From positions 11,528 through 75,527 of the IMG/VR virus record IMGVR_UViG_3300028832_000129: a stretch of 64,000 bases of DNA; one strand, written 5' to 3'. Positions 3,384-51,357 of the stretch are shown piece after piece; position 1 is the first letter of the stretch, and every line of letters begins with the position of its first letter. The position numbers and the translations under genes were made by a program. Source of the stretch: a virus. Lineage: Duplodnaviria; Heunggongvirae; Uroviricota; Caudoviricetes. The notes under the pieces are model-generated. The model was not told the DNA's origin and did not search any database. It saw only the letters and a list, made by a program, of their open reading frames with translations.

Positions 3384-6300
3384 ATGAACACTCTTTACGA
3401 CTTGGTTACTAAAATCGACGCGCTTACGGCAAATTCGCAGCAAGTCCTGAACGCCCTAATCAGGTCATGCGTGGCCTCCGGGTCGTCCAGCGGCTACAAG
3501 GTGAAAAAATACGGCGAGGAGATAGAGCTGGACCGGGCGGACATCTACCATCTTTACGATTTCTACCAGTCATGGGAGGCCGAGGGCTTCCCGTCCGACG
3601 AGTCCGAGTTCAATTCGCTGCTCGCCAGGGCAGATGCCCGCTGGAGGGTCGGCGAGGGCGATACGAGTACCCTGGCCAGCGACGCCGTCGCCAAGCACGC
3701 GAAGATTCTGTACCTCACCAAGGAACAGGCCGCCAAGCTAGAGGACGAGAATACCAGGGAAGCGACCGAGGCTCAGCTGAATACGAGCTACTGGGTCAAC
3801 CGGATTAGGGAATCCGCTACCCCGAAGGGCACCATTTCTAGTGCGCCAATCCCTCTCAACCTGCGTACCCCGCTGTACGACGAGAACCTTTCGGTCAAGT
3901 CTTTCAGTCAGTTCGAGACTTACCTGTTCCCCATGGGCTACCACCGTGCGGAAATCCTCGGGACTCCCGGGAACGGCGAGGACTATGTCGCCGGCGGACG
4001 CAACTGGACTATTGACGTCACTGACTTCCTTACACTCAGCGGGAACCATATCCTGCTCGGCAACAACAGCCTCCCCGTAAACAAGCTAGAAGGATACGGC
4101 GACAAGAGCCTCAATATCAGCTGGGGCAACGAGAGCTACGCCTTCGGTAACCTGTCGCTCGCCTTCGGCGACCATTCCGTGGCGCAGGCTGACGGTTCGC
4201 TCATATTCGGCAACCACTGCTATGGCCAGGGAATAGACTCGTTCATTGCCGGCGGCGACCGCAATCTCACGGTAATGGACAACGCGTTCGCGACGAACCA
4301 GCGCAATACGGCTGTCGCCAAGAACAGCTTTGCGGCAAATTACAACAACTATGCCGGCGGCTGGGGTTATGACTTTACCTTTATCGGGTCCGCCGACCCG
4401 AACGTGGTGAATACCGAGTGCGACGTGACCTATATCGAGTCCGAGGACGTTTGTGTATCGAATAAGACTGTAACCGATGTGCTCGGCGACAGTGCACTAT
4501 ATAAGGTGCTCTGCATTTCTGCTGATGACGTGACGCTTGCCAAGCTTCCGTTTGAGGAAACCATGCAGGTGGGCGACTATGTCGTTATCTATAACATGTG
4601 GGTAAAGAAGGATGGTTTCCAGAATACTGCCACTAGCATAGACGGGTATGCCGCCGATACGGTGATTGCCAAGATTACCAATATTACAAGGGTTAACATC
4701 GAGGGCACTAGTGACCTGGACCACTATGAAGTCACTCTGTCTACTCCGGTTCCTATCAAGAGCAAGAACGGCGTGTTTGGGGGCGGAACGGTTTCCTCAT
4801 ACATGAGGAGGGTTGTCCGGCATGATATCGACGGGAATCTCCTGGACAGGGACGATGTGTTACTTGGACTCAACTCGACTACCTTTGGACATGGCCATTC
4901 GGCAATCGGGCATAACCAGACCGTTGTGGGCCAGATGAGCGTTCCGAACATCGATGCAAAGTTTGTCGTCGGTACAGGCAGCTCCTACATATTCAGCAAG
5001 GACGAGGACGTATACAGGTCAAATTCGCTCGTTATCGGCGATACGTACAGCTATATGAAGCTGGCCAACGGCAGGAGCTATATCGGCGTGTCTACGCATA
5101 GCCAGCAAATCGATGACATGGGGGCGGACGATAATGGGACGGTGACATTGCCTAAGGGAACGGTGATGGCCACCAGGGACAAGTACACTCATGATTCAAC
5201 TAGGGTAGCCACCGATTCGAAGCTTGCATTCATGCAGGCCGAAAACAACCAGGGACCTGTGTCCAGGGTATGTATAGGCAGTACGATGCCTAGCACTGCC
5301 GGAGTCGGAACCTATCCTACCGCGTTGATGCAGAGCGTAAAGGGCACGACGGTAATTGCCGGCGGCGTCACGTATGTCGACGAGGTAACCGAACAGAAGC
5401 GTAACCTTGTGGAGACTCTTATCGATGCATCCCAGGTCATCATTTCCGGGGACGACAACGCTGTCGGAATCTATGCAAAGGATGGAATCGACATCAGGAA
5501 CGTCAACCCGTCCCGAGGCATCAACATCGAGACAAAGAACTGCATTGCGCTCAGGTTCAAGAACCTTGTTCTTGACGGGGATGATACGTTCGGGTCATTG
5601 ACCGCTACCGGTCGGGCACTGTCGTTCATCCTGGACAAGCAGGATGGGTCTGACAATAACGGGGCGCTTGATTCCATCCTCTGGGGTCATACCACGGGCA
5701 AGAGCGGCTTTTACTACATTGACGGTGGCAACAGCAATTCCAGACTGTTCGATGCAGCTGCCATTACCATGGGGACGACATCCAAGTATGACGGGAACCG
5801 GCTCCATCTGTACAACAGCGTACAGGCAAGCATAACCGACAACAAGTATCACGTTGCATCCCTGTCTATCCCGGAAGTCTCTACTGTCGTTCCCAGTGGC
5901 TATGCGTTACGCCCGAAAGTAACTACCGGTATAATTGACGGTGTAGGCGGTGCCGTTGGCAATGTGCTGACCAGCAAGGAAATCCCTTACATGGACGATA
6001 TCGGCGTATGGTCTTCTGCCCCGATGTCATGTTTCGGATTTATTAGGGGAGGCTCGTCGGTTTCGACACTTGACGCGGCATGCGATTTGTCCGATATCGA
6101 CGACTACGTGTATATGCCGTTGTTGCGGTTTGATAGAGATAGTAATGCATGGGTCTATAACCCTAGTAAAATATATGCCAAGATTTCTGCATCCGGTGGC
6201 TCCCGGAATGAATCCTATCTTCTAAGGTACAACGAGGCACGTATTGAATTGATGCATAATGACAACGGCACCACAGTTAAGTTTGGTGAAATGTCGGTAA

Positions 6301-13198: not shown

Positions 13199-14821
13199 AT
13201 GGCACAGATTGAACAAGAACGAATTTCCGCGCTGGATAGCTTGGTTACCCAGTCAGCGGACGGCGTTAACGAGCTCATAGAGTCCACTGTTGAAGCAGCA
13301 AAGTGGGCCATGGCGGTGGACTACATTGTCCCCGATAGTGATACCGCCAACCAGGAAGACTTGGTAGACCAGGGTACAAAGCGTATACCGGTAAGCCGAA
13401 TTGGCTTGCTGACTGATAGCCGTACCGTTCCACAGTCCATGTTACCTCACCAGATGGACGAGATTCTTAATGGACGAATGGTGCATGATACAGGTACCGG
13501 AAAATGGACATTCACCACTACCGTCGACGGGGTGCAGGTGGTATATGTATGCCCTGGTCCCCCGGTAGGAGATGAACGGCGGCCGGACATTAGTACTATA
13601 TACCGGGATGTAAGTGACGAAGACCAGGATGGAAACCCAATCTACACTCAGTATAGATATGTGCCGGATGACAATGCTGATGTTGGAACTGCCTCCGAAA
13701 CAGGGAGTTTCGTTCCTATTCCGAGTGACCTAGTCATGATAAATGGTGCCGGGACGGTAGTATCTGATAACGATGGCTCATACACCAGGGCCGTTGATAT
13801 TGTTATCGGTGCCCCTGCGGCGGAAACCAATACACATAATAGTCTCTTAATCAGCAGTGGCAAACTTTCGCATGCTACGAGTGGTGTGGCTGCCGGTACG
13901 TATCCAACCCCTCCGCAATCGTCTCAGTTGACGTTTGGCGGCACATTCGCCGTAGATGCATTTACCGTTAACTCGACTGGCCATGTTACCGCAGTCACTC
14001 CGTATTCGCTGACTGTGCCTAATACGGCGGCTTCACTATCTACCGAGGGATTGGTAAAGATAGGCAGTACCGATGACATACAAAATATAGGCCAGCAAAA
14101 ATCGGCGGGTACAACGACACCGAGTCCTTATGTAAAGGTTGCCGCCGCCGACCATGTCCATGCAGCATCCCATTTGATTCTGGAAAATATCAATGATTCC
14201 ACCAATTTCCAAAATGGGAGATTGGAATATACGGGTGCTGGTTCGGATATTGAATATAGTTTCAAGAATATTTTGAAGGCTACACTTCCGACTAATGGGC
14301 CGACTGCTGCCGGACAACTGTTGGTCAGCGTCGGAAATTCCGTTGCTAATATGCAGGCCGTCTGGAGAAATCCCGATGATGTATTTGCGCCAGAGTATGC
14401 ATTTGTGAAGGTTGCTAGCGGATGTACGTGTGGTACCTCTCCGGTTACCGTTCCATTCGATACATCAACGGAAACCCATGGCGGTAGCATGACGGTTGCA
14501 CAAACCGAATTTGGCGGGCTGAAGGCAGGCAAGGCATATGTCGTGTGCTTTAACTTTGGGTTCTCACATTCGTCAGCGACAACGTTTATTGAAGATGCCG
14601 TTGTAACAGTACAGACCGGCGCCGATTCCCAGTGGACAAGTGCGGCGGAGTATCGTTATTATCTGGACGGCTCAATTACTGGCGTATCAAACTATATAAA
14701 CGGTTGCATCATATTCTCGGTACCCAATGGTCATACATTAGCGAGACTCCGGCTGAATACAGGCCGGTCAACGTGGAACATTACTACTGACAGTAGCGTA
14801 CAAATTGCAGAGGTTAAGTAG
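13199..14821 (+). CDS. Tail-fibre or receptor-binding-like protein, paralog A, 540 aa.
   Basis: Shares a long collinear block with the next ORF: DIVIGAPAAETNTH...TFGGTF..DAFTVNSTGHVTAVTPYSLTVPNTAASLSTEGLVKIG...QQKSAGTTTPSPYVKVAAADHVH. Moderate GC. Ends with TAG. Confidence 0.55.
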   Translation: MAQIEQERISALDSLVTQSADGVNELIESTVEAAKWAMAVDYIVPDSDTANQEDLVDQGTKRIPVSRIGLLTDSRTVPQSMLPHQMDEILNGRMVHDTGTGKWTFTTTVDGVQVVYVCPGPPVGDERRPDISTIYRDVSDEDQDGNPIYTQYRYVPDDNADVGTASETGSFVPIPSDLVMINGAGTVVSDNDGSYTRAVDIVIGAPAAETNTHNSLLISSGKLSHATSGVAAGTYPTPPQSSQLTFGGTFAVDAFTVNSTGHVTAVTPYSLTVPNTAASLSTEGLVKIGSTDDIQNIGQQKSAGTTTPSPYVKVAAADHVHAASHLILENINDSTNFQNGRLEYTGAGSDIEYSFKNILKATLPTNGPTAAGQLLVSVGNSVANMQAVWRNPDDVFAPEYAFVKVASGCTCGTSPVTVPFDTSTETHGGSMTVAQTEFGGLKAGKAYVVCFNFGFSHSSATTFIEDAVVTVQTGADSQWTSAAEYRYYLDGSITGVSNYINGCIIFSVPNGHTLARLRLNTGRSTWNITTDSSVQIAEVK

Positions 14822-14823
14822 GA

Positions 14824-16374
14824 ATGGACCCGATAATCTACAAGAGAACCCACAAGAGGATACGCGAGCTTAATCAGTTCGAGGAAACTCAGGGTGGAGT
14901 TGACCCAATCGGAACACTGATGGGCTCGTCGGTGGCAAGTAAATGGTGTACAGCATTTGATGCGAGTGATTCATCCGTTGAACCTGATGATTCGTATAGC
15001 GTGCCATTAAGCCGATTGATTCTTCTTAGCCCGAACCGGAAAGTTCCGGCTGCGTTTTTGCCATCCTCGGTTTCTTCCGGCGAACTGCTGGTTACCCGCA
15101 CATATTCAGGTAGCGGCGACCCGAGGGAATGTCTACCTAATGTGGGTGAACAATATTACGGCAACATGAACCTTATCTTTAAGGTGGAAAGAACTGGACA
15201 GCCCGATGCATTTTATAGGTACGCATACACTGATTCCATGGATATACAGGAATGGTATGAAGTATACCATTCGCTATCGGACCGGCATGGGTTCTCTAAC
15301 GGTCAGGGTACAGTTGTTAGCGATACCATAAATCCGTCGACTGGAGCATATCATAGGGAAATTGATATCAATATCGGAACACCGGCTGCACATACGGACA
15401 CTATATTATCGATTACGAGTAGCAGTCCGTATAAGCTCGTGCATACGTTGAGCCAGAACACCAATGTCGATGCACCGGTACCTGCATCCGAGCCTGTGTT
15501 GTCGTTTGGGGGGTCATTATATACCCCAACACTAACTGTTGACAGTACAGGACATGTATCTAGCATAGTGTCGCAATCTTATACTTTGCCGAACACCCCC
15601 GCGGAAAAGGGTACGAACACTGATATTGCCGGTCTTGTTCGGATAGGGAACAGCAGTACATCTATAGGAACCCAGAAATCCGCCGGGCATACATCGGTGG
15701 ACAGTGAGCACCCATATATTCTGGTATCGGCCGCCGACCACAAGCATGATATGGCGAAGCTTGCATTTGTCGACAGCAATGATGACATTTCATATCAGGG
15801 CATGACGGATGTACCTGGTGTGGGAACGATAAGATATGATTTCAACCATATCGTGCAGGCCACGCTGCCAAGTGCCCCATTGTCTGCCGGACAGTTTGTC
15901 CTTACTGCCGAGTCGGCAACGACCCAGTCCAATTATGGAAGTACACGATGGACCACTATCGATAATGCGTTGCCGAACCAAGAGGGTATTGGTTCCGGGA
16001 CGGCTGTAATGCGAACCGTAGCTACTTCGCTTGGGTCGATTGCGCCGTTGGTTCAAGGTGGTATCTATCTGGTTACAATGAACATCATGGTTGAAGTTAC
16101 CGGTGGAGTCGGTGCACAGTCGGTTGCGCCTGTGCCTACGTTGCATGAACTTGAACTGACCATAGGAAACCATGTTGAAAAAATTACAATTCCCGGTTCC
16201 TGGACATGCACTGCACTTCCGAATAGTGGCATGCGATGGCTTGGCATGGCGACATTTATAATGATGGCGGCCGGTACAGCTGCACCAATGTCTGGCCGTA
16301 TGCCGGCACCGGACACCACTTATGATGGCGTATTTAAAGTAACGTGCGGTGCAATAGCCGAGCGTCTCAGGTAG
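14824..16374 (+). CDS. Tail-fibre or receptor-binding-like protein, paralog B, 516 aa.
   Basis: Tandem paralog of 13199..14821: DINIGTPAAHTDT...SFGGSLYTPTLTVDSTGHVSSIVSQSYTLPNTPAEKGTNTDIAGLVRIG...TQKSAGHTSV...ILVSAADHKH. Confidence 0.55.
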   Translation: MDPIIYKRTHKRIRELNQFEETQGGVDPIGTLMGSSVASKWCTAFDASDSSVEPDDSYSVPLSRLILLSPNRKVPAAFLPSSVSSGELLVTRTYSGSGDPRECLPNVGEQYYGNMNLIFKVERTGQPDAFYRYAYTDSMDIQEWYEVYHSLSDRHGFSNGQGTVVSDTINPSTGAYHREIDINIGTPAAHTDTILSITSSSPYKLVHTLSQNTNVDAPVPASEPVLSFGGSLYTPTLTVDSTGHVSSIVSQSYTLPNTPAEKGTNTDIAGLVRIGNSSTSIGTQKSAGHTSVDSEHPYILVSAADHKHDMAKLAFVDSNDDISYQGMTDVPGVGTIRYDFNHIVQATLPSAPLSAGQFVLTAESATTQSNYGSTRWTTIDNALPNQEGIGSGTAVMRTVATSLGSIAPLVQGGIYLVTMNIMVEVTGGVGAQSVAPVPTLHELELTIGNHVEKITIPGSWTCTALPNSGMRWLGMATFIMMAAGTAAPMSGRMPAPDTTYDGVFKVTCGAIAERLR

Positions 16375-32015: not shown

Positions 32016-32431
32016 CGAAAATTTTACACATTTTTCTTGCATTTTCCCTTGCCATTTCATTCGTTTTTATCTACTATTGCTATAAACATTACGTCAAAGG
32101 AATTAAAGATGCTAAAGCAACTCAACAATCTGTGCAAATTAACAGCTGCGGCCCAGGACGCACGTTATTTTGGCATTTTGGGTTTCGCAGGAAAAGCGGA
32201 GGCTGATGCAACTTAGTTCCAGGTAGACGAAAAGGTTTACGAGAGACGAAAAGGGCGGTTGCATCAGCAGGCAACCGCCCTTTCCGTTTAACCATTCGGG
32301 GGCGCATGTTCCAAGGTGGCGAATGATGCTGGCAGCATCGTTGAGAAGGATTCGATTTCCTTCGCTTCCATTAAAGCAAGGCTCGAGCAGCCTTGCGGTA
32401 GATTGACAGTTCGGATGCGATATGTTTTATG

Positions 32432-32504
32432 GGCCATTAGCTCAGTTGGTAGAGCGCCTGATTTGCACTCAGGAGGTCATCGGTTCGACCCCGATATGTG
32501 TCCA
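32432..32504 (+). tRNA. tRNA-Ala(TGC)-like. The acceptor stem is imperfect.
   Basis: GGGCCATTAGCTCAGTTGGTAGAGCG CCTGA-TTTGCAC-TCAGG ..ATCGG-TTCGACC-CCGAT. The 3' acceptor ATGTGTC pairs poorly with the 5' GGGCCAT. Preceded by the repeated 20-mer AGATTGACAGTTCGGATGCG. Confidence 0.5.
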
Positions 32505-32595
32505 GTATAATATGGGCTGCTAGAAGCAAGGGTAGCCAGCAACTACCCGATGGGCACTGCCTGGACAGATAGTAATCTATCCGTATTCCTAGGAA

Positions 32596-32697
32596 CCAAC
32601 CGTCGCCGTTGCCGGCGGCAGTGTTCCGACATGATGGGATAAGGACATTACGGGACTGGGGTCCATGCGAGGCCGGTTCGATTCCGGTGCGGTCCAC
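32596..32697 (+). ncRNA. tRNA-like element: canonical T-arm plus 3' acceptor, with the 5' partner unresolved.
   Basis: ...GCCGG-TTCGATT-CCGGT-GCGGTCC-A. No clean complementary 5' acceptor was found by eye. May be a degenerate or split tRNA. Confidence 0.25.
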
Positions 32698-32704
32698 TAT
32701 TTCG

Positions 32705-32775
32705 GGTCATTAGTTCAATGGTAGAATTCCCGGTCCGCATCCGGGGGATACCGGTTCGACCCCGGTATGTATCCA
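32705..32775 (+). tRNA. tRNA with an atypical anticodon loop TCCGCAT (anticodon CGC?). The acceptor stem is imperfect.
   Basis: GGGTCATTAGTTCAATGGTAGAAT..CCCGG-TCCGCAT-CCGGG..ACCGG-TTCGACC-CCGGT-ATGTATC. Shares the same acceptor oddity as 32432. Confidence 0.4.
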
Positions 32776-33029: not shown

Positions 33030-33767
33030 ATGAACTATAGACATATTTACTTAAACATTATCTTCCGTGCGCAAAATGATTATTTATCACGGTTAAAATT
33101 GAAGAAACATGGGATGTATTTTGAAAAGCACCATGTTCTCCCGCGGTCATTAGGTGGTAAAAATATCGCAAGTAATATAGTCTTATTGACGGGGAGAGAA
33201 CATTTTATTTGCCATTGGTTGTTGTTTAAAATGTTTAATAAGGGGACTATAGAGAGGAGCAAGATGCTATTTGCTTTATGGTGTATGAAATCGATTGAAC
33301 GCGGTCATACAGGAAGATATATTAATGCGAGAACATATGAATATATTCGGGCCGAGTTTGCGAGTATGGTAGGCCAGCTTAACTCAAAGCTGCAATCAGG
33401 TAGCCAAAATTCGCAATATGGAAAAATATGGTATACTAATGCATACACTGGTGCATCCACGTCATCCATAATTCCGTTAAAATATCCTTGGTATAAAGGC
33501 CGTAGACTGTTTCGCGGGGAAACAATGGTACTATTTAATAAAACCCAGCAATGTAGTATGATTCTGGCCAAACAAATATGGGACTTATTTCATAGTGGAA
33601 ACTACACATCATTTAGTGAGTTTACCAGCATGACTAATTTGCCGTTAAAGCGGCCTGGTATTCTGGCATTATTTAATAAATATGTGCCAATATCACGAAC
33701 TTTATGGAAGGATTCCACTAAGCCAAAACAGTCGGACAGTGCATATGTTGGACGATACTATAAATAA
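33030..33767 (+). CDS. HNH homing endonuclease.
   Basis: EKHHVLPRSLGGKNIASNIVLLTGREHFICH is an HNH motif. The gene sits in an AT-rich islet (32950-33890) inside the tRNA array. Confidence 0.75.
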   Translation: MNYRHIYLNIIFRAQNDYLSRLKLKKHGMYFEKHHVLPRSLGGKNIASNIVLLTGREHFICHWLLFKMFNKGTIERSKMLFALWCMKSIERGHTGRYINARTYEYIRAEFASMVGQLNSKLQSGSQNSQYGKIWYTNAYTGASTSSIIPLKYPWYKGRRLFRGETMVLFNKTQQCSMILAKQIWDLFHSGNYTSFSEFTSMTNLPLKRPGILALFNKYVPISRTLWKDSTKPKQSDSAYVGRYYK

Positions 33768-34485: not shown

Positions 34486-34557
34486 GCGGGTGTAGCTCAG
34501 AGGAAGAGCAACGTACTTTTAATACGTGGGTCGGGATTTCGAAATTCCCCACCCGCA
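34486..34557 (+). tRNA. tRNA-Lys(TTT).
   Basis: GCGGGTGTAGCTCAGAGGAAGAGCA ACGTA-CTTTTAA-TACGT..TTCGAAA..CACCCGC. Confidence 0.8.
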
Positions 34558-34561
34558 CTAT

Positions 34562-34877: not shown

Positions 34878-34959
34878 CCCGCAGTGGCGGAACTGGTAGA
34901 CGCGTGCGCCTTAGGAGCGCATGCCGAAAGGTGTGCAGGTTCGAGTCCTGCCTGCGGGA
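34878..34959 (+). tRNA. tRNA-Leu(TAG).
   Basis: Perfect acceptor CCCGCAG/CTGCGGG. Anticodon arm TGCGC-CTTAGGA-GCGCA. Long variable arm. T-arm GCAGG-TTCGAGT-CCTGC. Confidence 0.85.
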
Positions 34960-34978
34960 CTAAACAAAGGAGGAATAT

Positions 34979-35416
34979 ATGAGAAGACTGTTCATCATTC
35001 GCAAGGACCTGGACTTGTCCAAGGGAAAGCTTTCGGCGATGGTAGCCCATTGCGCCGAAGGTTTCTGGACACGCCTCATCTCCCGAAGTGCGACGAAGGA
35101 AGGCGACTCATACTCCGTCAAGTTCGAACTGGATTCAGCCACGATGGACGAGTATGTCCGCGGGCTGTTCGTTAAGACCGTGTGCGAGGCGAAGAACCTC
35201 ACCCACCTCATGAAGGTGGAGGAAGTCGCCAAGGGGTTCGGCCTTGTCGAGAATGTAGACTACGGCTTCATCGACGACGCGTGTCTTACCGAGCTTACCC
35301 CGGAGTCGACCGACGAGAACGGCAACGGCTACTGTAGGGTGGGCATCTGGTTCAGGCCGCTGCCGGACGACGTGAGCCATGCCCTCAGCAGGAAGTACCA
35401 GCTTTTCCGGGGATGA
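34979..35416 (+). CDS. Peptidyl-tRNA hydrolase, PTH2 family.
   Basis: Strong AAAGGAGGAATATATG RBS. N-terminus RLFIIRKDLDLSKGKLSAMVAHCAEG matches the Pth2 signature (..vvR.Dl.mgkGKiaAQ.aHAa). Collinear mid and C-terminal blocks. Embedded between tRNA genes. Confidence 0.7.
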   Translation: MRRLFIIRKDLDLSKGKLSAMVAHCAEGFWTRLISRSATKEGDSYSVKFELDSATMDEYVRGLFVKTVCEAKNLTHLMKVEEVAKGFGLVENVDYGFIDDACLTELTPESTDENGNGYCRVGIWFRPLPDDVSHALSRKYQLFRG

Positions 35417-35587: not shown

Positions 35588-35629
35588 TCTATTTGACCAT
35601 GTTTAGCAGAAAGGACTCCACTCGGGTCG

Positions 35630-35645
35630 ATTTTTGCTATATTTG
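35630..35645 (+). promoter_or_regulatory. Phage promoter motif TTTTTGCTATATTTGG.
   Basis: Exact motif at the start of a ~450-nt ORF-free structured region. Confidence 0.5.
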
Positions 35646-35703
35646 GTTAGCAAGAATTTCGTGCCAAGATATAAACAAAAACCACCAGGTTGACGTTTTT
35701 GCA

Positions 35704-35720
35704 GAAAATTGCTATATTTG
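35704..35720 (+). promoter_or_regulatory. Phage promoter motif AAAATTGCTATATTTGG.
   Basis: Second motif copy 60 nt downstream of the first. Followed by the repeated 20-mer AGATTGACAGTTCGGATGCG at 35751. Confidence 0.5.
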
Positions 35721-36088
35721 GTACACCGGGAAGCCCGTGAGGTTCCCCAGAAGATTGACAGTTCGGATGCGTTTCCTTTGCAGTTCGGGTTAAACTGCGC
35801 GTTGCAACCAACGATAGGTTGCTCGCATTTTGAAGATTTTACGAAATCTTACCCCGGCGGGAGGCGTCCCGCCCGAAGCCACGCGCTTTGGCGTGGTGGA
35901 ATACCTTTAGCATAAACGTGAGTGCGCCCGGGTTCGCAACCGGGAGGTGTCTTCTGCTCAGGAAGGCAAGGGAAATTAACTAATGAGTTCGGCGTGAGCC
36001 GGGACGGGCGGACGTATAGGGCTAGTTCCATTGCCCTTCTCCTTTTTGGTTGTGTCGAGGTCCCCCGTCCCGCTCGCGCCGTTCGCAT

Positions 36089-36161
36089 GGCGATGTCGTC
36101 TAGAGGCCTAGGACACAGGATTTTCATTCCTGGAACTCGGGTTCGAATCCCGGCATCGCTA
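36089..36161 (+). tRNA. tRNA-Glu(TTC).
   Basis: Glu-type D-arm TCGTCTAGAGGCCTAGGAC. Anticodon arm CAGGA-TTTTCAT-TCCTG. T-arm TCGGG-TTCGAAT-CCCGG. Acceptor GGCGATG/CATCGCT with G1·U72. Confidence 0.75.
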
Positions 36162-36169
36162 CTAATCAT

Positions 36170-36242
36170 CGCGGGATGGAGCAGTTGGTAGCTCGCGAGG
36201 CCCATAACCTCGAGGTCGTCGGTTCGAGTCCGACTCCCGCTA
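36170..36242 (+). tRNA. tRNA-Met(CAT), initiator-like.
   Basis: CGCGGGATGGAGCAGTTGGTAGCTCG CGAGG-CCCATAA-CCTCG AGGTC GTCGG-TTCGAGT-CCGAC TCCCGCT. Closely parallels E. coli tRNA-fMet, including an unpaired position 1-72. Confidence 0.75.
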
Positions 36243-36250
36243 CGAAACAT

Positions 36251-36355
36251 TGCCAAATGGCGGAAAGTGCATCGACGATGCCGTTAGACGCAGGGGAATC
36301 TAAGTCCCCGGCCCTCGCGCGAAAGGGTGTCCAGGTTCGAGTCCTGGTTTGGTAA
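36251..36355 (+). tRNA. Atypical long tRNA-like gene with a CUA (amber-reading) anticodon arm.
   Basis: Acceptor TGCCAAA/TTTGGTA (7 bp incl. G·U). T-arm CCAGG-TTCGAGT-CCTGG. Perfect anticodon arm GGGGA-ATCTAAG-TCCCC (anticodon CTA at 36300-36302). A ~16-nt palindromic hairpin (GCATCGACGATGC) is inserted in the D-region. Total ~105 nt. Confidence 0.4.
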
Positions 36356-36380
36356 CTATGATTTTGCCGTCGCTAAGACT

Positions 36381-36454
36381 GGGTGGGTAAGCTCAGGTGG
36401 TAGAGCTCGGGTGGAAAACAACCCGGGACACCGGTTCGAGTCCGGTTCTGTCCT
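36381..36454 (+). tRNA. tRNA-like or pseudo-tRNA with a possible 8-nt anticodon loop.
   Basis: D-arm TAAGCTCAGGTGGTAGAGCT and T-arm ACCGG-TTCGAGT-CCGGT are canonical. The acceptor GGGTGGG/TCTGTCC is mostly G·U. The anticodon stem CGGGT/ACCCG encloses GGAAAACA. Confidence 0.3.
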
Positions 36455-36579
36455 GTTGATTGCGGCGGAAGTGCCGGGAAGACGTCCCCGGCGCGGCGCT
36501 ATTAAGTCATTTTCGGATTAGGGCCCCGACGCACCAGCAAAACCGTTTGGTACCTATAGAAAATGACCGCCGTTCCCAT

Positions 36580-36668
36580 GGCCACGTAGCTTAGCAAGGT
36601 GGACGAGGCCTCGTCAGAGCGCCCGGCTAACCAGGCCGGGAGACGCCGGTTCGATTCCGGCCGTAGAT
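36580..36668 (+). tRNA. tRNA-like element with a hairpin insertion. Not resolvable by eye.
   Basis: 5' GGCCACG-TA-GCT..., a perfect inserted palindrome GACGAGG/CCTCGTC, CCCGGC-TAACCAG-GCCGGG arm and T-arm GCCGG-TTCGATT-CCGGC. The 3' acceptor does not pair cleanly. Confidence 0.25.
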
Positions 36669-37273
36669 TGGGACGGCAAACCTTTAACGACACAGTCGCC
36701 TGTTAGGCGAACCGCCCGAGAGCATGTTCCTGCTGCCGTATAATTTTCCGGCGGACGCTCTAGGGGGTCAGCAAAATGATGCCGTGTGTTAGGACGCACT
36801 TGGCAGCATAGAGAAGGTGGTCTCCGGAGGCCGGCGGACTCAGTCCCTGTTTCCGGTATGTGCTCTAGGGTAACGGCCGAACATGAAATCCCGTGGGCCG
36901 ACCCGTGACGGGGAATTAACGAAAGTCACGGAAGGCCCGGCGTGATTCTCGCGGGAGACGGCTGTGTCATACGTTTAGGCGCAAAGGGAGTTCCTATTGA
37001 AACTTCCAACAACAGTGACTTACTCCCAGCGCTTGCTTTTAGACACCAAGGCGGTTCCTACCCAAAGCTTGGTCTGCAAAACCGATTTACCGCCAGTGTC
37101 GCTTTTAAATGTGTACCCGGACGTATTTTTCGTTGTGGGTTGATGATTTGTGCCAATCCGAGTACATGAATTTGCGTGCCCAAACGAAGTTCCTCGTTTG
37201 ATGGTTGACTTACTTCCCGGGCACGCATTTTGTTTGATGAGTGCTAGAACGGTTGCTGATTTAGTTCATCTTT

Positions 37274-37348
37274 GCTCTCGTCGTCTAATGGAATTAGGAT
37301 TACGAGAATCCGAATCTTGTGATAGCAGTTCGAATCTGCTCGAGAGTA
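37274..37348 (+). tRNA. tRNA-Arg(CCG)-like.
   Basis: Acceptor GCTCTCG/CGAGAGT (G1·U72). Glu-like D-arm. Anticodon arm CGAGA-ATCCGAA-TCTTG. T-arm AGCAG-TTCGAAT-CTGCT. Confidence 0.55.
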
Positions 37349-37371
37349 CTATATTACCGTAGGAGATTTCA

Positions 37372-38232
37372 ATGAAGCGGAAATATATGCAAGTTACCAA
37401 GCAGCATCCCAAATTTAGGGCACTGATTACGCCATATGATGACTATCATTCGGCTGGCCCACGATTAAAATCTGATGGCCGGATGTATATAGATATACTA
37501 AAGAATGAAACGGATTGCTTTCTCGGTATGCTATATGCTCGGTATTTATTGGAAGTGAAGTTAGGACGGCGCTTGAGGGATGGTTATGTAGTAGACCATA
37601 TCGATGGGTGTAGCTGGAATGATGATATGACGAATTTACAGGAAATTCCTGCTGCTGATAACGAAAGAAAGGGAATATCTGGAATTAGGCTAGACATGCA
37701 ACACGCTCGCACGTTCATACAGATAAAATGCCCTTGGTGTGGTACATGGTTTGAAAAGCAGAAAACATCTATTAACGGTAAATTATCGTTTTGCTCAAGG
37801 GCATGCGTGTCGAAATATTATAGGTCGGACCGGGCATGCAAAAATGAAACGCGTACTATGCGGGCCGTGCCTGCACCGGATAGCAGCATAGTTCCTAAAC
37901 GCTATTCTGTTCCGTTCGAACAAGTATCTACTGTGTATTTTTATAGTGTCCGTGTTCCGACGTGTCTATGCGGTAATCCGATTTCTTCGAAGTCAAGCAT
38001 ATACTGTGACCAATGCTTGGATATGAAGGTAAAAGCTACCGTGGAACAAGCTGATATGGAAAGAAAAGCTATTGCGGACCGTATACGGTTGATATATCAA
38101 GAAGAAGGCAAAGTGCCTATGTGCAAGCTAGCTGGATACATGGGTTATAGTGACAAAGGACTTGCGAAGGCAATACTTAGGTTATTCGGTAAGCCGCATA
38201 AAGAGGTAATCAATTCGATATGCGGAAAATGA
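37372..38232 (+). CDS. HNH endonuclease (AP2/HNH_3-like homing endonuclease).
   Basis: YVVDHIDGCSWNDDMTNLQEIPAADNERKG is an HNH motif. Multiple CxxC pairs follow. AT-rich gene adjacent to tRNAs. Confidence 0.65.
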   Translation: MKRKYMQVTKQHPKFRALITPYDDYHSAGPRLKSDGRMYIDILKNETDCFLGMLYARYLLEVKLGRRLRDGYVVDHIDGCSWNDDMTNLQEIPAADNERKGISGIRLDMQHARTFIQIKCPWCGTWFEKQKTSINGKLSFCSRACVSKYYRSDRACKNETRTMRAVPAPDSSIVPKRYSVPFEQVSTVYFYSVRVPTCLCGNPISSKSSIYCDQCLDMKVKATVEQADMERKAIADRIRLIYQEEGKVPMCKLAGYMGYSDKGLAKAILRLFGKPHKEVINSICGK

Positions 38233-38255
38233 TGACAAATAAAATTTTGGCGTAA

Positions 38256-38418
38256 GCAAGGCCGCTTGTACATGTATCCAGGTTCAGGTACTTCCTGCTC
38301 GAACATCAAGAACCGGGGCATACGCCATTACCATTAGAAAGGGTTGACATTGGCAAGGCCGCTTGTTCTGCATCCAGGTTCAGGTACTTCCTGCGAACAT
38401 CAAAATACGGGGCATGTG
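38256..38418. repeat. Pair of ~65-nt direct repeats (38256-38323 and 38353-38418) separated by a TTGACA-containing spacer.
   Basis: GCAAGGCCGCTTGT(A/T)C(A/T)TG(T/C)ATCCAGGTTCAGGTACTTCCTGC(TC)GAACATCAA(G/A)A..CGGGGCAT occurs twice. Confidence 0.6.
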
Positions 38419-38776: not shown

Positions 38777-39135
38777 GGGGGTGCTTGGTTTCGACTGGGC
38801 ATCGGACTGTGGAGACCTCACACGAAGTTGGTCTGTGGCTTCGTAAAAACGGACCGAAAAGATAAATGCTGACAATGCATTCGCCTACGCCGTTGCTGCT
38901 TAATCGGTAGCACGCCGTTGCCCGGGTCAAGTGGGATGAATAAAGCCCGGGACCAAGTAGATAAGTCCCGAATTTAGCCGTGAGTTACTGGTCGTAGACC
39001 GGCTATCTTACACTGGACCAGGACCCCTCAAGGATACATCTCCCCGGGCAACAGGTCAGGGCCCAAAACGATGGATTGTGATACGGTTGAAACGGAATGG
39101 CGTTTAGGACAGGGGTTCGACTCCCCTCACCTCCA
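38777..39135 (+). ncRNA. ssrA: tmRNA (transfer-messenger RNA).
   Basis: 5' GGGGGTGCTTGGTTTCGACTGGGC parallels E. coli GGGGCTGATTCTGGATTCGACGGG. 3' tRNA-like domain GGACAGGGGTTCGACTCCCCTCACCTCCA (T-arm plus acceptor pairing with the 5' GGGGGTG). Internal tag reading frame GCT GAC AAT GCA TTC GCC TAC GCC GTT GCT GCT TAA = ADNAFAYAVAA-stop at 38868-38903. Length 359 nt. Confidence 0.8.
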
Positions 39136-39380
39136 CGAAATTTACGTCCTGCTGCCGGTAGGACCGCCCTTCAGCACGGGGTAGAACGCGAGTACGACCA
39201 TGGGTGTGGCCGGCTTGCGCGAAGGCGGTGGACTAAAATCTTGGCACGATGCCATATCACCAATCCCACTCCGGGAAAGGTTGCAGGCGTGTAGCCGCGT
39301 ACCGGCCACGCGAGCGTAAAGCGGTAAGGGCCCGCTAATAGGCCCAGTGTGTTTGAAAAGTCTCGACGGTGATGAGGTAA

Positions 39381-39397
39381 TTGTCCTATATTTGAAT
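39381..39397 (+). promoter_or_regulatory. Promoter motif variant TTGTCCTATATTTGAAT.
   Basis: Matches the TATATTTG core inside the ORF-free region between the tmRNA and the next tRNA block. Confidence 0.35.
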
Positions 39398-39847
39398 ATG
39401 GCGTAGTCTGGCTCATTTAGAAGCCATAAAACATACCAAATCAACACTTTGGGTGGACATCGCCTAGCATAAGTTGCGGAACAGTGGCTAGGGTAACTTT
39501 CTGGTAATCCTAGTAATGCGCCGTCGAGACTCTTAGTTTGGGTGTACCCGTGATTAGCCTAGGTTTAAATTGCGGGAGCCCATTAGGGACGCGCCGGGTA
39601 TGCACCGGCAAGCCCCGACGTCGGGTGCGCCCGTCGAAACGACGTAAAACAAGACAGAGTGCGGCTACGTCCTGGTAACGTGGAGCATTAAGGACCCGTT
39701 GGCCACACTGGTTACAGTGGCCTAGCCGGCTGGGAGTTAGCCGGATGGTTTCCGCATCGGCGGAATGAGTACAGTCCCCGCAAGGACACCGAGAGGGAAC
39801 TGGGCGATGACGCGTTCTAGAAGCTAGGATATCGCCGTTCCCACCAT

Positions 39848-39924
39848 GTTGCGGTAGCTTAATGGTTAGCGCATGCCTGGACTGCAGCCGGCATGAGATG
39901 GTGGTCCGAATCCACCCCGTGACA
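39848..39924 (+). tRNA. tRNA-like gene with an extended or bulged anticodon stem. Identity unresolved.
   Basis: Acceptor GTTGCGG/CCGTGAC (two G·U). D-arm TAGCTTAATGGTTAGC. T-arm GGTGG-TCCGAAT-CCACC. Central CATGCC(T)GG-ACTGCAG-CCGGCATG helix. Confidence 0.35.
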
Positions 39925-41461: not shown

Positions 41462-41753
41462 GTATCCCACAGAATTTTCGCGCCGATTCCCCTAGAATAT
41501 TCACCCGGCGCGAACATGGGAGCCCGACCATGGATAAGACGGGCAGCATTGAGATTGCCGCCGCATTGATTAAATTGGGTTCAAGTCCCGGCGGTCGGGA
41601 AAGTGTACGCGAGTCCACCGGTACCGGCAGCCAAGAAGGAAACAGGATTCCCGGCGGCATGGCACTAAACTGTCTGCCACAGAAATGACGGTGAGACCTT
41701 CGGCAGTTAATACGGGAAAGTCCAGGAGATGTCTTTTGGTAAAGCTGCCATTT

Positions 41754-49785: not shown

Positions 49786-50088
49786 TAGGACCCATGGAGT
49801 AATCAACTACTCACCGGCTAAAGACTGGTGGGTTTGAGGAAACCCCTCGAACCCATAGTTGATTAGGCTAAGTGATAGGAGGCAACTCCTTGAACTACGT
49901 TGATAGAATCATGGCACCCCGGAATGTTTGTCCAAGTTCCCCGCTCTGCCGTATGTCATTAAAAGTCCTGATGGGTAGGGACGGTGTGGCATACCTAGTA
50001 AGTTCTTCCAACATTGCCGATGGACACCCACAGGGAGAAATCCCTGCATTACCTATTAAGTTAGGTTAAGACAAAAAGGAAACGATAG
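49786..50088 (+). ncRNA. Putative omega-RNA (OMEGA guide RNA) scaffold upstream of iscB.
   Basis: ~300-nt ORF-free, promoter-preceded leader with multiple stable stem-loops (e.g. AATCAACTA...TAGTTGATT; GGGTTTGAGGAAACCCC) immediately 5' of and abutting iscB. This is the canonical position of IscB omega-RNAs. Confidence 0.5.
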
Positions 50089-51357
50089 ATGGTATATGTT
50101 TTGAGCATTGATGGCAAACCGCTGATGCCAACCGAACGGTTTGGCAGGGTTCGCCGTCTGTTGAAAGCACGTAAGGCCTTTATCGTAAACTACCACCCGT
50201 TCACAATCAAGCTAACCTACAAGTGTCCCGACCGGACACAGGAGGTATCACTGGGTGTAGATGCAGGCAGCAAGCACGTAGGCCTGTCTGCTACCACAAA
50301 GAAGAAAGTATTGTTCGAGGCTCAACTGGAATTACGGAATGACATCGTAAAGAAGCTGGCTACCAGACGCGAGTTCCGTAGGACTAGACGCTACCGGAAA
50401 ACTAGATATCGTAAAGATAGATTTCTTAACCGTACCAAGAAGGAAGGATGGCTCGCTCCATCTGTTAAGCACAAGGTATGGGCACACCTATGGAACATCG
50501 TTAGAATCAAACGAATACTGCCTATAAGCAAGATAACCATAGAGGTGGCACAGTTCGATACCCAGTTGCTCAAGGCTCAAGAACTAGGCTTGCCGGTACC
50601 CCAAGGCACGGACTACCAGAGAGGCGAACAGCTTGGATTCTGGAATGTAAGGGAGTACGTGCTGTTCCGTGATGACCACAAATGCCAATGCTGCAAGGGA
50701 AAGTCGGGAGATTCCGTTCTCAACGTGCATCATATAGAGTCTCGGAAGACCGGAGGGAATGCGCCCAACAACCTTGTGACTCTTTGTGAGACTTGCCACA
50801 AGAAATATCATAAGGGTGAAATCAGGCTCCCTGCATCTATCAGGCGTGGTGCAAGTTATAAGGATGCTGCATTTATGGGCATTATCCGAAAGGAAGTATA
50901 CCGAATGTCTCGGATAGTGAACAATACGCTTACATGTCCTGTAGACATTACCTATGGCTACATCACCAAGAATACCAGAATCCGGTGTGGATTGCCTAAA
51001 GAACATACTATTGATGCTAGATGCATCAGCGGAAATCCGATGGCTAAAAGCAATGGAACAACTTATATAATTAAGCCTTTGAGACACAATAACCGACAGC
51101 TACACAAGGCATCTATCTTATCTGGAGGCATACGTAAGAACAACCAGGCTCCTAAAGAAGTGTTCGGTTTCCGCATTATGGATACCGTACTATACAATGG
51201 ACAGGTATGCTATGTCAATGGCCGTAGGGCGTCCGGCTATTTCTCCCTGGTAGATATCTACGGGAAAGTTTTAACCAACTCTGTCAGTTACAGGAAACTG
51301 GCCAGAATCAACCACAATAACTACATCATAGGAGGCGCAATTCCTCTCACCCACTAA
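50089..51357 (+). CDS. iscB: IscB, RNA-guided RuvC/HNH nuclease (OMEGA system; IS200/IS605-type Cas9 ancestor).
   Basis: N-terminal PLMP domain MVYVLSIDGKPLMPTERFGRVRRLLKARKAFIV. RuvC-I LGVDAGSKHVGLS. Arg-rich bridge RREFRRTRRYRKTRYRKDR. RuvC-II ITIEVAQFD. HNH CQCCKG...VHHIESRKTGGNAPNNLVTLCETCHKKYH. RuvC-III HTIDARCISGN. 422 aa. Confidence 0.85.
   Translation: MVYVLSIDGKPLMPTERFGRVRRLLKARKAFIVNYHPFTIKLTYKCPDRTQEVSLGVDAGSKHVGLSATTKKKVLFEAQLELRNDIVKKLATRREFRRTRRYRKTRYRKDRFLNRTKKEGWLAPSVKHKVWAHLWNIVRIKRILPISKITIEVAQFDTQLLKAQELGLPVPQGTDYQRGEQLGFWNVREYVLFRDDHKCQCCKGKSGDSVLNVHHIESRKTGGNAPNNLVTLCETCHKKYHKGEIRLPASIRRGASYKDAAFMGIIRKEVYRMSRIVNNTLTCPVDITYGYITKNTRIRCGLPKEHTIDARCISGNPMAKSNGTTYIIKPLRHNNRQLHKASILSGGIRKNNQAPKEVFGFRIMDTVLYNGQVCYVNGRRASGYFSLVDIYGKVLTNSVSYRKLARINHNNYIIGGAIPLTH

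Follow-up and report, generated by a model that had tools for sequence, protein, structure and literature searches.

A transfer RNA (tRNA) gene with a CUA anticodon, termed E1, was found in a 64,000-nt stretch of phage DNA (Caudoviricetes; IMG/VR record IMGVR_UViG_3300028832_000129, positions 11,528 to 75,527), the whole of which is referred to as the window. E1 comprises 105 nt on the + strand (36251-36355), is derived from tRNA-Leu and is most likely an amber-suppressor-type tRNA, as judged from its predicted fold, its conservation in related phages and its flanks; two tRNA-like elements that follow on the same strand, E2 (36381-36454) and E3 (36569-36677), are best read from the same comparisons as non-decoding tRNA-like RNAs. 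The explanation as a whole, with E1 as a Leu-derived suppressor-type tRNA reading UAG and with E2 and E3 as non-decoding processing or protein-binding modules, stands for us evenly balanced between belief and doubt. Since the phage often ends its own genes with TAG, an amber suppressor is notable here. Suppressor tRNAs were among the possibilities raised for the three elements in an earlier note on this DNA; for E1 this now ranks first among the readings, and E2 and E3 do not resemble decoders.

The tRNA array of the phage occupies 28.6-42.8 kb of the window, and 33 tRNAs and a transfer-messenger RNA (tmRNA; 38777-39138) are called in it by ARAGORN. Rfam adds to this set one tRNA and a HEARO RNA beside an IscB gene; the tRNA cluster numbers roughly 35 genes. 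Between tRNA-Met (36170-36243) and tRNA-Arg (37274-37349), where E1-E3 are located, neither default ARAGORN nor Rfam at gathering thresholds calls anything.

Fold, ancestry and conservation of E1

The minimum-free-energy fold of E1 by itself is a cloverleaf. It consists of an acceptor stem with 7/7 pairs (36251-36257 / 36348-36354; one G.U, replaced by G-C in all other variants of the locus), followed by A73 (36355) and the trailer CTA; a 3-bp D stem (GCG, 36260-36262 / CGC, 36289-36291); the anticodon arm GGGGA / AUCUAAG / UCCCC (36293-36309); a variable arm of 21 nt (36310-36330; 5-bp stem GCCCU/AGGGU, 8-nt loop); and the T arm CCAGG-TTCGAGT-CCTGG (36331-36347). The 26 nt between the D-stem strands (36263-36288) lack GG and contain a 13-nt hairpin, GCAUC-GAC-GAUGC (36269-36281; DNA GCATCGACGATGC), with a 5-bp stem and a 3-nt loop; a canonical D loop has about 7-11 nt and includes G18G19. 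Re-folding and alignment to the tRNA-Leu genes of the array both place the CUA triplet (36300-36302) at positions 34-36 of a 7-nt loop, together with U33 and A37; the CUA arm of the earlier note is thereby borne out, and the length of about 105 nt given there is exact.

In a global alignment against 249 tRNAs (window and relatives), E1 is nearest to the tRNA-Leu genes of the array (UAG/UAA), and its closest paralog is tRNA-Leu(UAG) at 34878-34960. A multiple alignment sets GGCGGAA-(15-nt insertion)-CCGU-UAGACGC in E1 against GGCGGAA-CUGG-UAGACGC in tRNA-Leu, which indicates that a hairpin-bearing net insertion of 15 nt took the place of the G18G19 segment. The variable arm is about 6 nt longer than in the tRNA-Leu genes of the array. 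E1 carries the traits of a class II tRNA-Leu (homology, long variable arm, 3-bp D stem, A73), and its anticodon is not of a leucine type (NAG or YAA). A covariance model built on 16 class II tRNA-Leu genes of the clade detects E1 with 33.4 bits (E ~6e-9 in 16 kb, filters off) despite the insertion, and matches its U33 and CUA to the U33 and anticodon of the model, with 23 D-loop bases aligned versus 8 expected. True tRNA-Leu genes score 83-91 bits with this model and the short-arm Leu(CAA) 51.5, and the score of E1 falls inside the range of genuine non-Leu tRNAs of the array.

The flanks of E1 (ACAT directly before the 5' strand UGCCAAA; 3' end UUUGGUA-A-CUA) resemble those of bona fide tRNAs of the array in both the AT on the 5' side and the A73-CTA on the 3' side: about half of the 33 array tRNAs are preceded by AT, and 22 of the 33 end with N73-C-T-A in the place of CCA, which is encoded by none of them. 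When one hairpin is removed in silico, default ARAGORN calls E1 (anticodon cta) and E3 (acc). The same deletion applied to 32 uncalled T arms of 17 related loci rescues only E1, E3 and their orthologs, so the signal is not a matter of chance. ARAGORN in relaxed and intron-detecting modes, the latter put forward as a check in the earlier note, returned Pyl, SeC or Leu models with 'introns', which are forced and poor and were not trusted.

Orthologs were collected with the gene for a PTH2-type peptidyl-tRNA hydrolase within the array (34979-35416) as an anchor, and by one pattern scan of Joint Genome Institute (JGI) metagenomes. Contigs with an identical PTH2 protein are 100% the same as the window and thus uninformative. 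Four further distinct versions of the locus were obtained from independent rumen metagenomes, L037 (99.4% identity to the window), L038/L039 (94%), L025 and L023 (91-95%), and variable columns were counted in the five-way alignment with the window. Only 2 of the 105 columns of E1 are variable, whereas the PTH2 coding sequence varies at 24% and the flanking non-coding DNA at 10-15%; the shortage of change is significant against the lowest of the background rates (binomial p = 0.002). The corresponding counts for tRNA genes of the array are 0/74 (tRNA-Glu), 3/83 (tRNA-Leu(GAG)), 10/74 (tRNA-Met) and 19/76 (tRNA-Cys). Both changes in E1 turn a G.U into a G-C in predicted helices, one in acceptor pair 2:71 and one in the foot pair of the variable arm (position 36328, U to C in L025), and the hairpin and the full 17-nt anticodon arm are invariant in all five variants. 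Since the changes are few and preserve pairs, E1 is a gene and not debris; as judged from this alignment, it is under purifying selection over the entire molecule, including the hairpin and the anticodon arm.

E1-E3 are absent from the more distant relatives L028-L036 (PTH2 identity 72-80%), though the array is present in these, and from the IMG/VR relatives of the PTH2 gene at 44-49% identity. The exact 17-mer of the E1 anticodon arm has five matches in IMG/VR, all unrelated chance matches, and the anticodon arm combined with the T arm has no match in GTDB genomes. A loose pattern for a tRNA-Leu with a D-loop insertion gave at least 120 matches in IMG/VR, none of those listed with an acceptor stem; the pattern is too loose.

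E2, E3 and the RNA block around them

E2 has an acceptor stem GGGUGGG/UCUGUCC (7/7 pairs including four G.U, with G3.U70 and the discriminator U73), a normal D arm (GCTC-AGGTGGTA-GAGC), the T arm ACCGG-TTCGAGT-CCGGT (36430-36446), and an anticodon arm (36408-36425) with the 8-nt loop GGAAAACA in the window. The Rfam tRNA model finds E2 with permissive filters only (33.8 bits, threshold 29), not in the gathering-mode run, and aligns 8 anticodon-loop bases versus 7 expected, in agreement with the 8-nt loop described previously. The acceptor, D and T arms are essentially fixed, and outside the anticodon arm 3 of 56 columns are variable, versus 11 of 18 within it. The loops of the five variants are GGAAAACA, GUAAACA, GGAACAU, GGAAUAU and GCGAUAU (7-8 nt); the base of the anticodon stem is kept, and two C-to-U changes in L023 and L038 yield G.U pairs. 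Three loop changes separate the window from L037, though there are only 51 differences between them in 8.3 kb (corrected probability ~0.03). The variability of the loop argues that E2 is not a decoding tRNA; from these comparisons, it is predicted to be an RNA of tRNA shape in which the loop is free of constraint or is diversifying. The CTA trailer is absent from E2. A search for a template repeat, as expected of a diversity-generating retroelement as the cause of the loop variation, found none. E2 was also considered as a tmRNA-type Ala-accepting domain and rejected: it has G3.U70 but U73 and no tag reading frame, and the true tmRNA is at 38777-39138.

E3 consists of a tRNA-like core (36580-36668) inside a 9-bp leader-trailer helix, GCCGU(U)CCCA (36569-36578) / UGGGACGGC (36669-36677), in which a single bulged base is variable; sequence variation resumes a few bases beyond the helix. 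The D stem has 4 bp, with one U.G pair that is U-A in L023, and a 14-nt hairpin (GACGA-GGCC-UCGUC, 36602-36615) follows G18G19 in the D loop; in L023 the palindrome centre GG is replaced by TA, which gives the loop UACC with the 5-bp stem retained. The T arm is canonical (GCCGG-TTCGATT-CCGGC, 36645-36661), the acceptor stem has two mismatches and one G.U, and the CTA trailer is absent. The anticodon-like loop U(A/U)ACCAG (36628-36634) is closed by a 6-bp stem; at position 33, the window shares A with L037 and L025, and L023, L038 and L039 have U. To our knowledge, the ACC anticodon is used by no bacterial tRNA-Gly. With no free acceptor end, no fixed U33 and ACC in the anticodon position, E3 is best seen as a closed tRNA-like module. 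It is conserved, with 5 of 106 columns variable (36570-36675), all at unpaired or pair-preserving sites.

The earlier note had seen in all three elements a canonical T arm, an acceptor-like end and an extra perfect palindrome in the D region, and had treated them as one class. The T arms are all in their places (36331-36347, 36430-36446, 36645-36661). The acceptor stems of E1 and E2 pair fully, and that of E3 does not. The palindromes hold for E1 (36269-36281) and E3 (GACGAGG/CCTCGTC, 36602-36615), where as RNA they form 5-bp stems with 3-4-nt loops, and fail for E2 with its normal D arm. A single class is hence not tenable: E2 has no hairpin and a free loop, and E3 has a degenerate acceptor, A33 or U33, and ACC. 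A motif GACGA(U/G)(G/A)CC is shared by the D-loop hairpins of E1 and E3 (36272-36282, 36600-36610); in degenerate form it has four matches in the window versus 0.42 expected, the other two in unrelated places, and a common origin or a common protein-binding site is possible.

Conserved folds flank these elements, and E1-E3 thus belong to 1.7 kb of structured non-coding RNA (35590-37273). A conserved hairpin in the spacer between E2 and E3 (36473-36492, + strand) shows a compensatory G-C to A-U exchange in L037 (36476 and 36489). A second spacer hairpin, GUCAUUUUC...GAAAAUGAC (36506-36567, + strand; fold z-score -2.44 for 36455-36569), is remodelled but retained in L023, where its inner part is swapped for a different hairpin. 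Downstream of E3, about 560 nt of conserved non-coding DNA (36676-37235) yield a consensus fold of 170 pairs, including a long-range helix (36689-36698 / 36960-36969), in which most substitutions are pair-preserving; no Rfam family matches this region, and the modelled fold suggests that it may represent a new structured RNA.

Another non-coding block of about 500 nt is located upstream in the array (35590-36088), and its differences from the near-identical L037 are clustered at 35866-35900. The best sigma-70-like promoter match of the region is at 35690-35718. An exact 20-mer, AGATTGACAGTTCGGATGCG, which includes TTGACA, occurs twice (32400-32419 and 35752-35771), each time 5' of a block of tRNA-type genes; it is possibly a promoter or regulatory site present in two copies. 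At 38247-38415, about 97 nt are duplicated in tandem (83-96% identical), with a degenerate T-arm-like motif, CCAGGTTCAGGTACTTCCTG, inside.

Stop-codon usage and alternative explanations

In the explanation that we prefer, E1 would have arisen from a class II tRNA-Leu gene by gain of CUA, of a longer variable arm and of a D-loop hairpin where G18G19 had been. It would be co-transcribed with the array, cut by RNase P, trimmed and provided with CCA, possibly by the CCA-adding-type enzyme of the phage (48172-49428; PolyA_pol-head domain match). Charging would be independent of the anticodon, with leucine as the likeliest amino acid by descent and by A73, and charged E1 would then read UAG and cause some read-through. 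Because TAG ends about one third of the genes, and no in-frame TAG was found in the ~74 kb covered (the window and 10 kb to the right of it, of genomes of 340-466 kb), suppression would probably be partial or timed, or would serve genes elsewhere in the genome. E2 and E3 retain the parts that are recognized by processing and tRNA-binding enzymes, i.e. the acceptor/T-arm helix and the elbow; E2 is without a constrained anticodon loop and E3 without a usable acceptor end and U33, and both would most likely act as tRNA-like processing or protein-binding modules in the block at 35590-37273.

Several observations weigh against a suppressor function of E1. The G18G19 bases that normally lock the tRNA elbow are missing from E1, and A32/G38 of its anticodon loop are unusual; either feature could impair function on the ribosome. 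The Rfam tRNA model RF00005 matches neither E1 nor E3 even at E <= 10, and default ARAGORN misses E1, E2 and E3; E2 is found by RF00005 with permissive filters, and E1 by the tRNA-Leu model of the clade. The conservation is drawn from five close variants only, and the hairpin itself is without covariation. The thermodynamic z-scores of E1-E3 (-0.7 to -1.4) are unremarkable and uninformative.

The stop-codon usage also counts against suppression. In addition to the lack of in-frame TAG, the codon ends 14 of 49 + strand open reading frames (ORFs) and 21 of 51 genes in the database gene calls for the same and related phages, i.e. 29-41% of gene ends, among them genes of 540, 516, 504, 868 and 696 amino acids; the TAG stop at 14819-14821 pointed out in the earlier note is real, the next gene starting at 14824 in another frame. 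Other TAG stops are at 16372, 25920, 31646 and 48117. ORF coverage is 0.89 with code 11 and rises upon read-through to 0.95 for TAG, 0.94 for TGA and 0.95 for TAA, without a TAG-specific gain. Stop-joined ORF pairs on the + strand (seven TAG, seven TAA, five TGA) are not enriched in TAG; the sequence is coding-like on both sides in only two TAG-joined pairs, which have their own start codon right after the stop and are ordinary adjacent genes. Back-up stops are not significantly closer after TAG (median 19 versus 34-40 codons, p = 0.1-0.2). Searches of 39 window ORFs against Pfam and PHROGs revealed no aminoacyl-tRNA synthetase, no release factor and no recognizable structural gene, and the 10 kb past the right end of the window have dense gene calls with the standard code. 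Lineages evolving towards recoding are described as having a low-GC, TAG-poor background (Borges et al., bioRxiv 10.1101/2021.08.26.457843), and the TAG-rich DNA of 54% GC content observed here is the opposite.

Some of these points favor the strongest rival, in which E1-E3 are all non-decoding mimics, that is, decoys or sponges for tRNA-targeting nucleases or tRNA-binding enzymes, or punctuation for RNase P/Z, with CUA kept for recognition. A bulky D-loop hairpin in place of G18G19, and a phage that stops heavily on TAG with no recoding seen, would fit such mimics, and further elements without anticodon arms are present in the array (32300-32372, ~32516-32697 and 41523-41600; see below), as are the structured RNAs that flank E2 and E3. 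Phage tRNAs are known as counter-measures to anticodon nucleases (PMC10264068, PMC11464382, PMC11555353), and the tRNA-like t-elements of plant mitochondria are processing signals (PMC1920247). On the other side, E1 has all elements of a decoder (7-nt loop, U33, A37, 5-bp stem, A73 and tRNA-type flanks), a sense anticodon and not CUA would be expected of a decoy for a host tRNA, and the anticodon arm drifts in the non-decoding neighbor E2 whereas the 17-nt arm of E1 is frozen in the same genomes. We regard the mimic explanation for E1 as unlikely, albeit as one to be taken seriously. An elaboration of the suppressor explanation, which we consider improbable in its full form, takes E1 as an active suppressor whose hairpin is a handle for dependence on, or protection by, a phage factor, for timed UAG read-through, and the loop of E2 as diversifying in an arms race with anticodon nucleases; the factor might be a synthetase, a modification enzyme or a protection from tRNA-cleaving defenses.

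E1 might also be the suppressor for TAG-recoded late genes outside the window (code-15-type, as in Lak and crAss-like phages), the window being a standard-code early region. Recoded phages do keep early regions compatible with the standard code along with CUA suppressors, and rumen jumbo phages are recoded relatively often (8.75%) (Borges et al., bioRxiv 10.1101/2021.08.26.457843; PMC13037316); moreover, only the ~74 kb of a genome of 340-466 kb were covered. Given the abundance of TAG stops, the GC content of 54%, the descent of E1 from a Leu- and not a Gln-type tRNA, and the result of a tail-sheath search with a query from L031, in which all homologs in the wider group were full-length (~1200 amino acids) with the standard code, though none is tied to an E1-bearing contig, we see this as a quite slim possibility.

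Slimmer still is the explanation that E1-E3 are decaying pseudogenes, i.e. duplicates with small insertions, possibly endonuclease-linked, whose conservation reflects a short divergence time. It would fit the rejection by default tRNA finders, the degenerate E2 loop and E3 acceptor stem, and the mobile HNH, DUF559 endonuclease and TnpB genes that dot the arrays. The variation in E1 and E3 is, however, 5-10 times lower than in the non-coding DNA next to them in the same genomes, the few changes present keep base pairs, and the variation in E2 is limited to one arm, the other 56 nt being nearly fixed. The homing-endonuclease origin suggested earlier is likewise not upheld, since neither HNH gene (33030-33767 and 37372-38232) lies next to the elements, and purifying selection, not decay, acts on E1 and E3; the HNH gene has no relative in IMG/VR. 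Finally, excision of the D-loop hairpins as short intervening sequences (e.g. by cleavage and RtcB-type ligation) to give ordinary tRNAs, another suggestion of the earlier note, is hardly credible: hairpin-deleted sequences are callable by ARAGORN and the relative L035 encodes RtcB, but the 13-15-nt inserts have neither a group I core nor a bulge-helix-bulge motif and match no Rfam intron family, we know of no precedent for D-loop introns of this size in bacteria or phages, E1 would after removal still be without G18G19 and E3 still with a mispaired acceptor and A33, and the hairpin stems show the same conservation as the other parts of the molecule, as though they served a function in the mature RNA.

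The wider array and known systems

The GC content of the window is 54%, and its genes are located mainly on the + strand and tile well with the standard code. Several bovine rumen metagenomes contain DNA identical or near-identical to the window, and the contigs that bear PTH2 relatives are 340-466 kb in size, which points to a huge rumen phage as the source. Samples with this phage include ERZ27257203, ERZ27257207, ERZ27256849, JGI 3300037512 and 3300028887, and SRR11060108. A BLAST search of GenBank phages with the region and a 12-kb flank matched only tRNA-Glu/Met genes and thus revealed no close phage.

Two tRNAs upstream of E1 (32432 and 32705 in the earlier note) had been described as having a mis-paired acceptor end, which proves to be a conserved bulge. 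They are tRNA-Ala(UGC) (32431-32504, + strand) and tRNA-Ala(CGC) (32704-32775, + strand), for each of which Rfam flags two non-standard pairs in the acceptor stem. One bulged base in the 8-nt 3' strand (AUG-U-GUCC in the former) yields 7/7 pairs, G3.U70 and A73 in both genes, with C4-G69 replaced by U4-A69 in the latter. Of 13 distinct tRNA-Ala genes in the clade, 12 have the bulged acceptor, with covarying stems (GGGCCAU/AUG-U-GUCC, GGGUCAU/AUG-U-AUCC, GGGGGUG/CAC-G-UUCC, GGGUCUG/CAG-U-AUCC, GGGGGCG/CGC-G-UUCC), as expected of a predicted bulge that is conserved.

Three further tRNA-like elements are not called. The first (32300-32372) is of Ala type (GGGGGCG/CGCUUCC, G3.U70, A73; T arm AAGGA-UUCGAUU-UCCUU) and has a 10-bp hairpin (32322-32342) where the anticodon arm is expected; the tRNA-Leu model gives it 10.6 bits (E = 0.1). 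The second, of about 180 nt, is located between the two tRNA-Ala genes (~32516-32697; T arm 32672-32688), and its Ala-type acceptor strand GCGGUCC-A-CUA pairs with GGGCUGC at 32516. Its 3' end is conserved in L031 (near 8054) and L035 (near 3262), at a PTH2 identity of 72-76%, and no Rfam family matches it; from its predicted pairing, a tmRNA-like RNA and a heavily expanded tRNA-Ala-like RNA are both conceivable. The third (41523-41600; acceptor CCCGACC/GGUCGGG) has 18.3 bits with the tRNA-Leu model and is conserved in L023 near 17242.

Other features of the window were also noted. The tRNA-Lys (34486-34558) switches its anticodon between near-identical strains: through position 34518 it is UUU in the window, and CUU in L037 (99.4% identity). 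Rfam predicts a tRNA at 39848-39924 (48.4 bits) that is missed by ARAGORN, and a second, permuted 'tmRNA*' of ARAGORN (39044-39558) is probably spurious. The HEARO/omega RNA (122 bits) is located directly 5' of the IscB-type gene (RRXRR and HNH domains, 50089-51357; whole region 49802-51357), and TnpB/Cas12f-like genes are inserted in the arrays of the relatives L019, L028 and L040.

In the relatives, the class I tRNAs Asn(GUU) and Arg(UCU) occur with added long variable arms and a total of 83-89 nt (L023, 7867-7952; L035, 4483-4571 and 8738-8826; L025, 3955-4037), which is another type of structural expansion in this phage clade. L032 encodes a faint TROVE (Ro60-like) domain gene (4174-5595) with four uncalled T-arm elements upstream (3315, 3456, 3622 and 3873), which could be tRNA mimics of the Y-RNA type, here in a huge phage. 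More distantly related huge phages encode, next to tRNA-Met, a tRNA whose 8-nt loop holds a four-base anticodon, CAUG (L011, 4560-4634; L012, 10816-10890). With its bulged tRNA-Ala, long-arm class I tRNAs and anticodon-less mimics, the clade is a rich source of non-canonical tRNA biology.

The leucyl-tRNA synthetase does not read the anticodon, and leucine charging of a leucine scaffold with CUA is plausible. An amber suppressor tRNA-Leu(CUA) is reportedly given by Escherichia coli supP (Su6), a single-base laboratory mutant derived from leuX with a normal D loop; both share the Leu scaffold and CUA, but the E1 gene is natural and conserved, its D loop is remodelled and its variable arm is longer. 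The stable RNAs C and D of phage T4 are said to be small, partly tRNA-like RNAs in a tRNA operon, with no stop-reading anticodon arm known; E1-E3 are likened to them by setting only, as tRNA-like RNAs in a phage tRNA cluster, and not by sequence.

For E2 and E3, there is a likeness to the t-elements of plant mitochondria (PMC1920247) and to mascRNA-type RNAs, which mimic the acceptor and T arm without a working anticodon between transcribed RNAs; the likeness is one of predicted structure only, and the ends of E3, unlike those of t-elements, are locked in the 9-bp leader-trailer helix. Defense-evading phage tRNAs (PMC10264068, PMC11464382, PMC11555353) have anticodon loops that depart from the host norm, as does the hot-spot loop of E2, but they are functional decoders with defined anticodons, and E2 has none. 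tRNA-Sec and allo-tRNAs (PMC7590224) resemble E1 in that the D arm is enlarged and the variable arm long, and some members have a stop-codon anticodon; their acceptor/T helices are 8/5, 8/4 or 9/3 and their D stem is long and uninterrupted, whereas E1 combines 7/5 helices with a 3-bp D stem and a hairpin set apart within the loop.

The closest known systems are the CUA suppressors of TAG-recoded gut and rumen phages (Lak, crAss-like, jumbo; Borges et al., bioRxiv 10.1101/2021.08.26.457843; PMC13037316), which are, like E1, phage CUA tRNAs among other phage tRNAs in a huge gut or rumen phage. Those suppressors are close enough to the canonical form to be found by tRNAscan-SE, presumably insert Gln, and belong to TAG-poor, low-GC genomes with in-frame TAG; E1 is class II and Leu-derived, carries a D-loop hairpin and is missed by ARAGORN and the Rfam tRNA model, and its genome region has 54% GC, is TAG-rich and uses the standard code as far as visible. 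Suppressor tRNAs were found in only 35-40% of stop-codon-recoded phages, and a non-canonical structure was proposed as the cause (Borges et al., bioRxiv 10.1101/2021.08.26.457843); E1 provides an actual case, a conserved CUA tRNA missed by default ARAGORN and by the Rfam tRNA model, and surveys of recoding and tRNA content in phages may under-count such genes. The current model would not predict E1 in its setting, a region rich in GC and TAG with an apparently standard code; E1 could be a sign of regulated read-through, of an early step to recoding, or of a stop-reading tRNA put to use outside translation. For tRNA engineering, a tRNA able to accommodate a hairpin at the site of G18G19 would also be of interest. 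Phage CUA tRNAs as such are already known, and what is new in E1 compared with these is the class II Leu scaffold, the hairpin replacing G18G19, and the TAG-rich standard-code setting.

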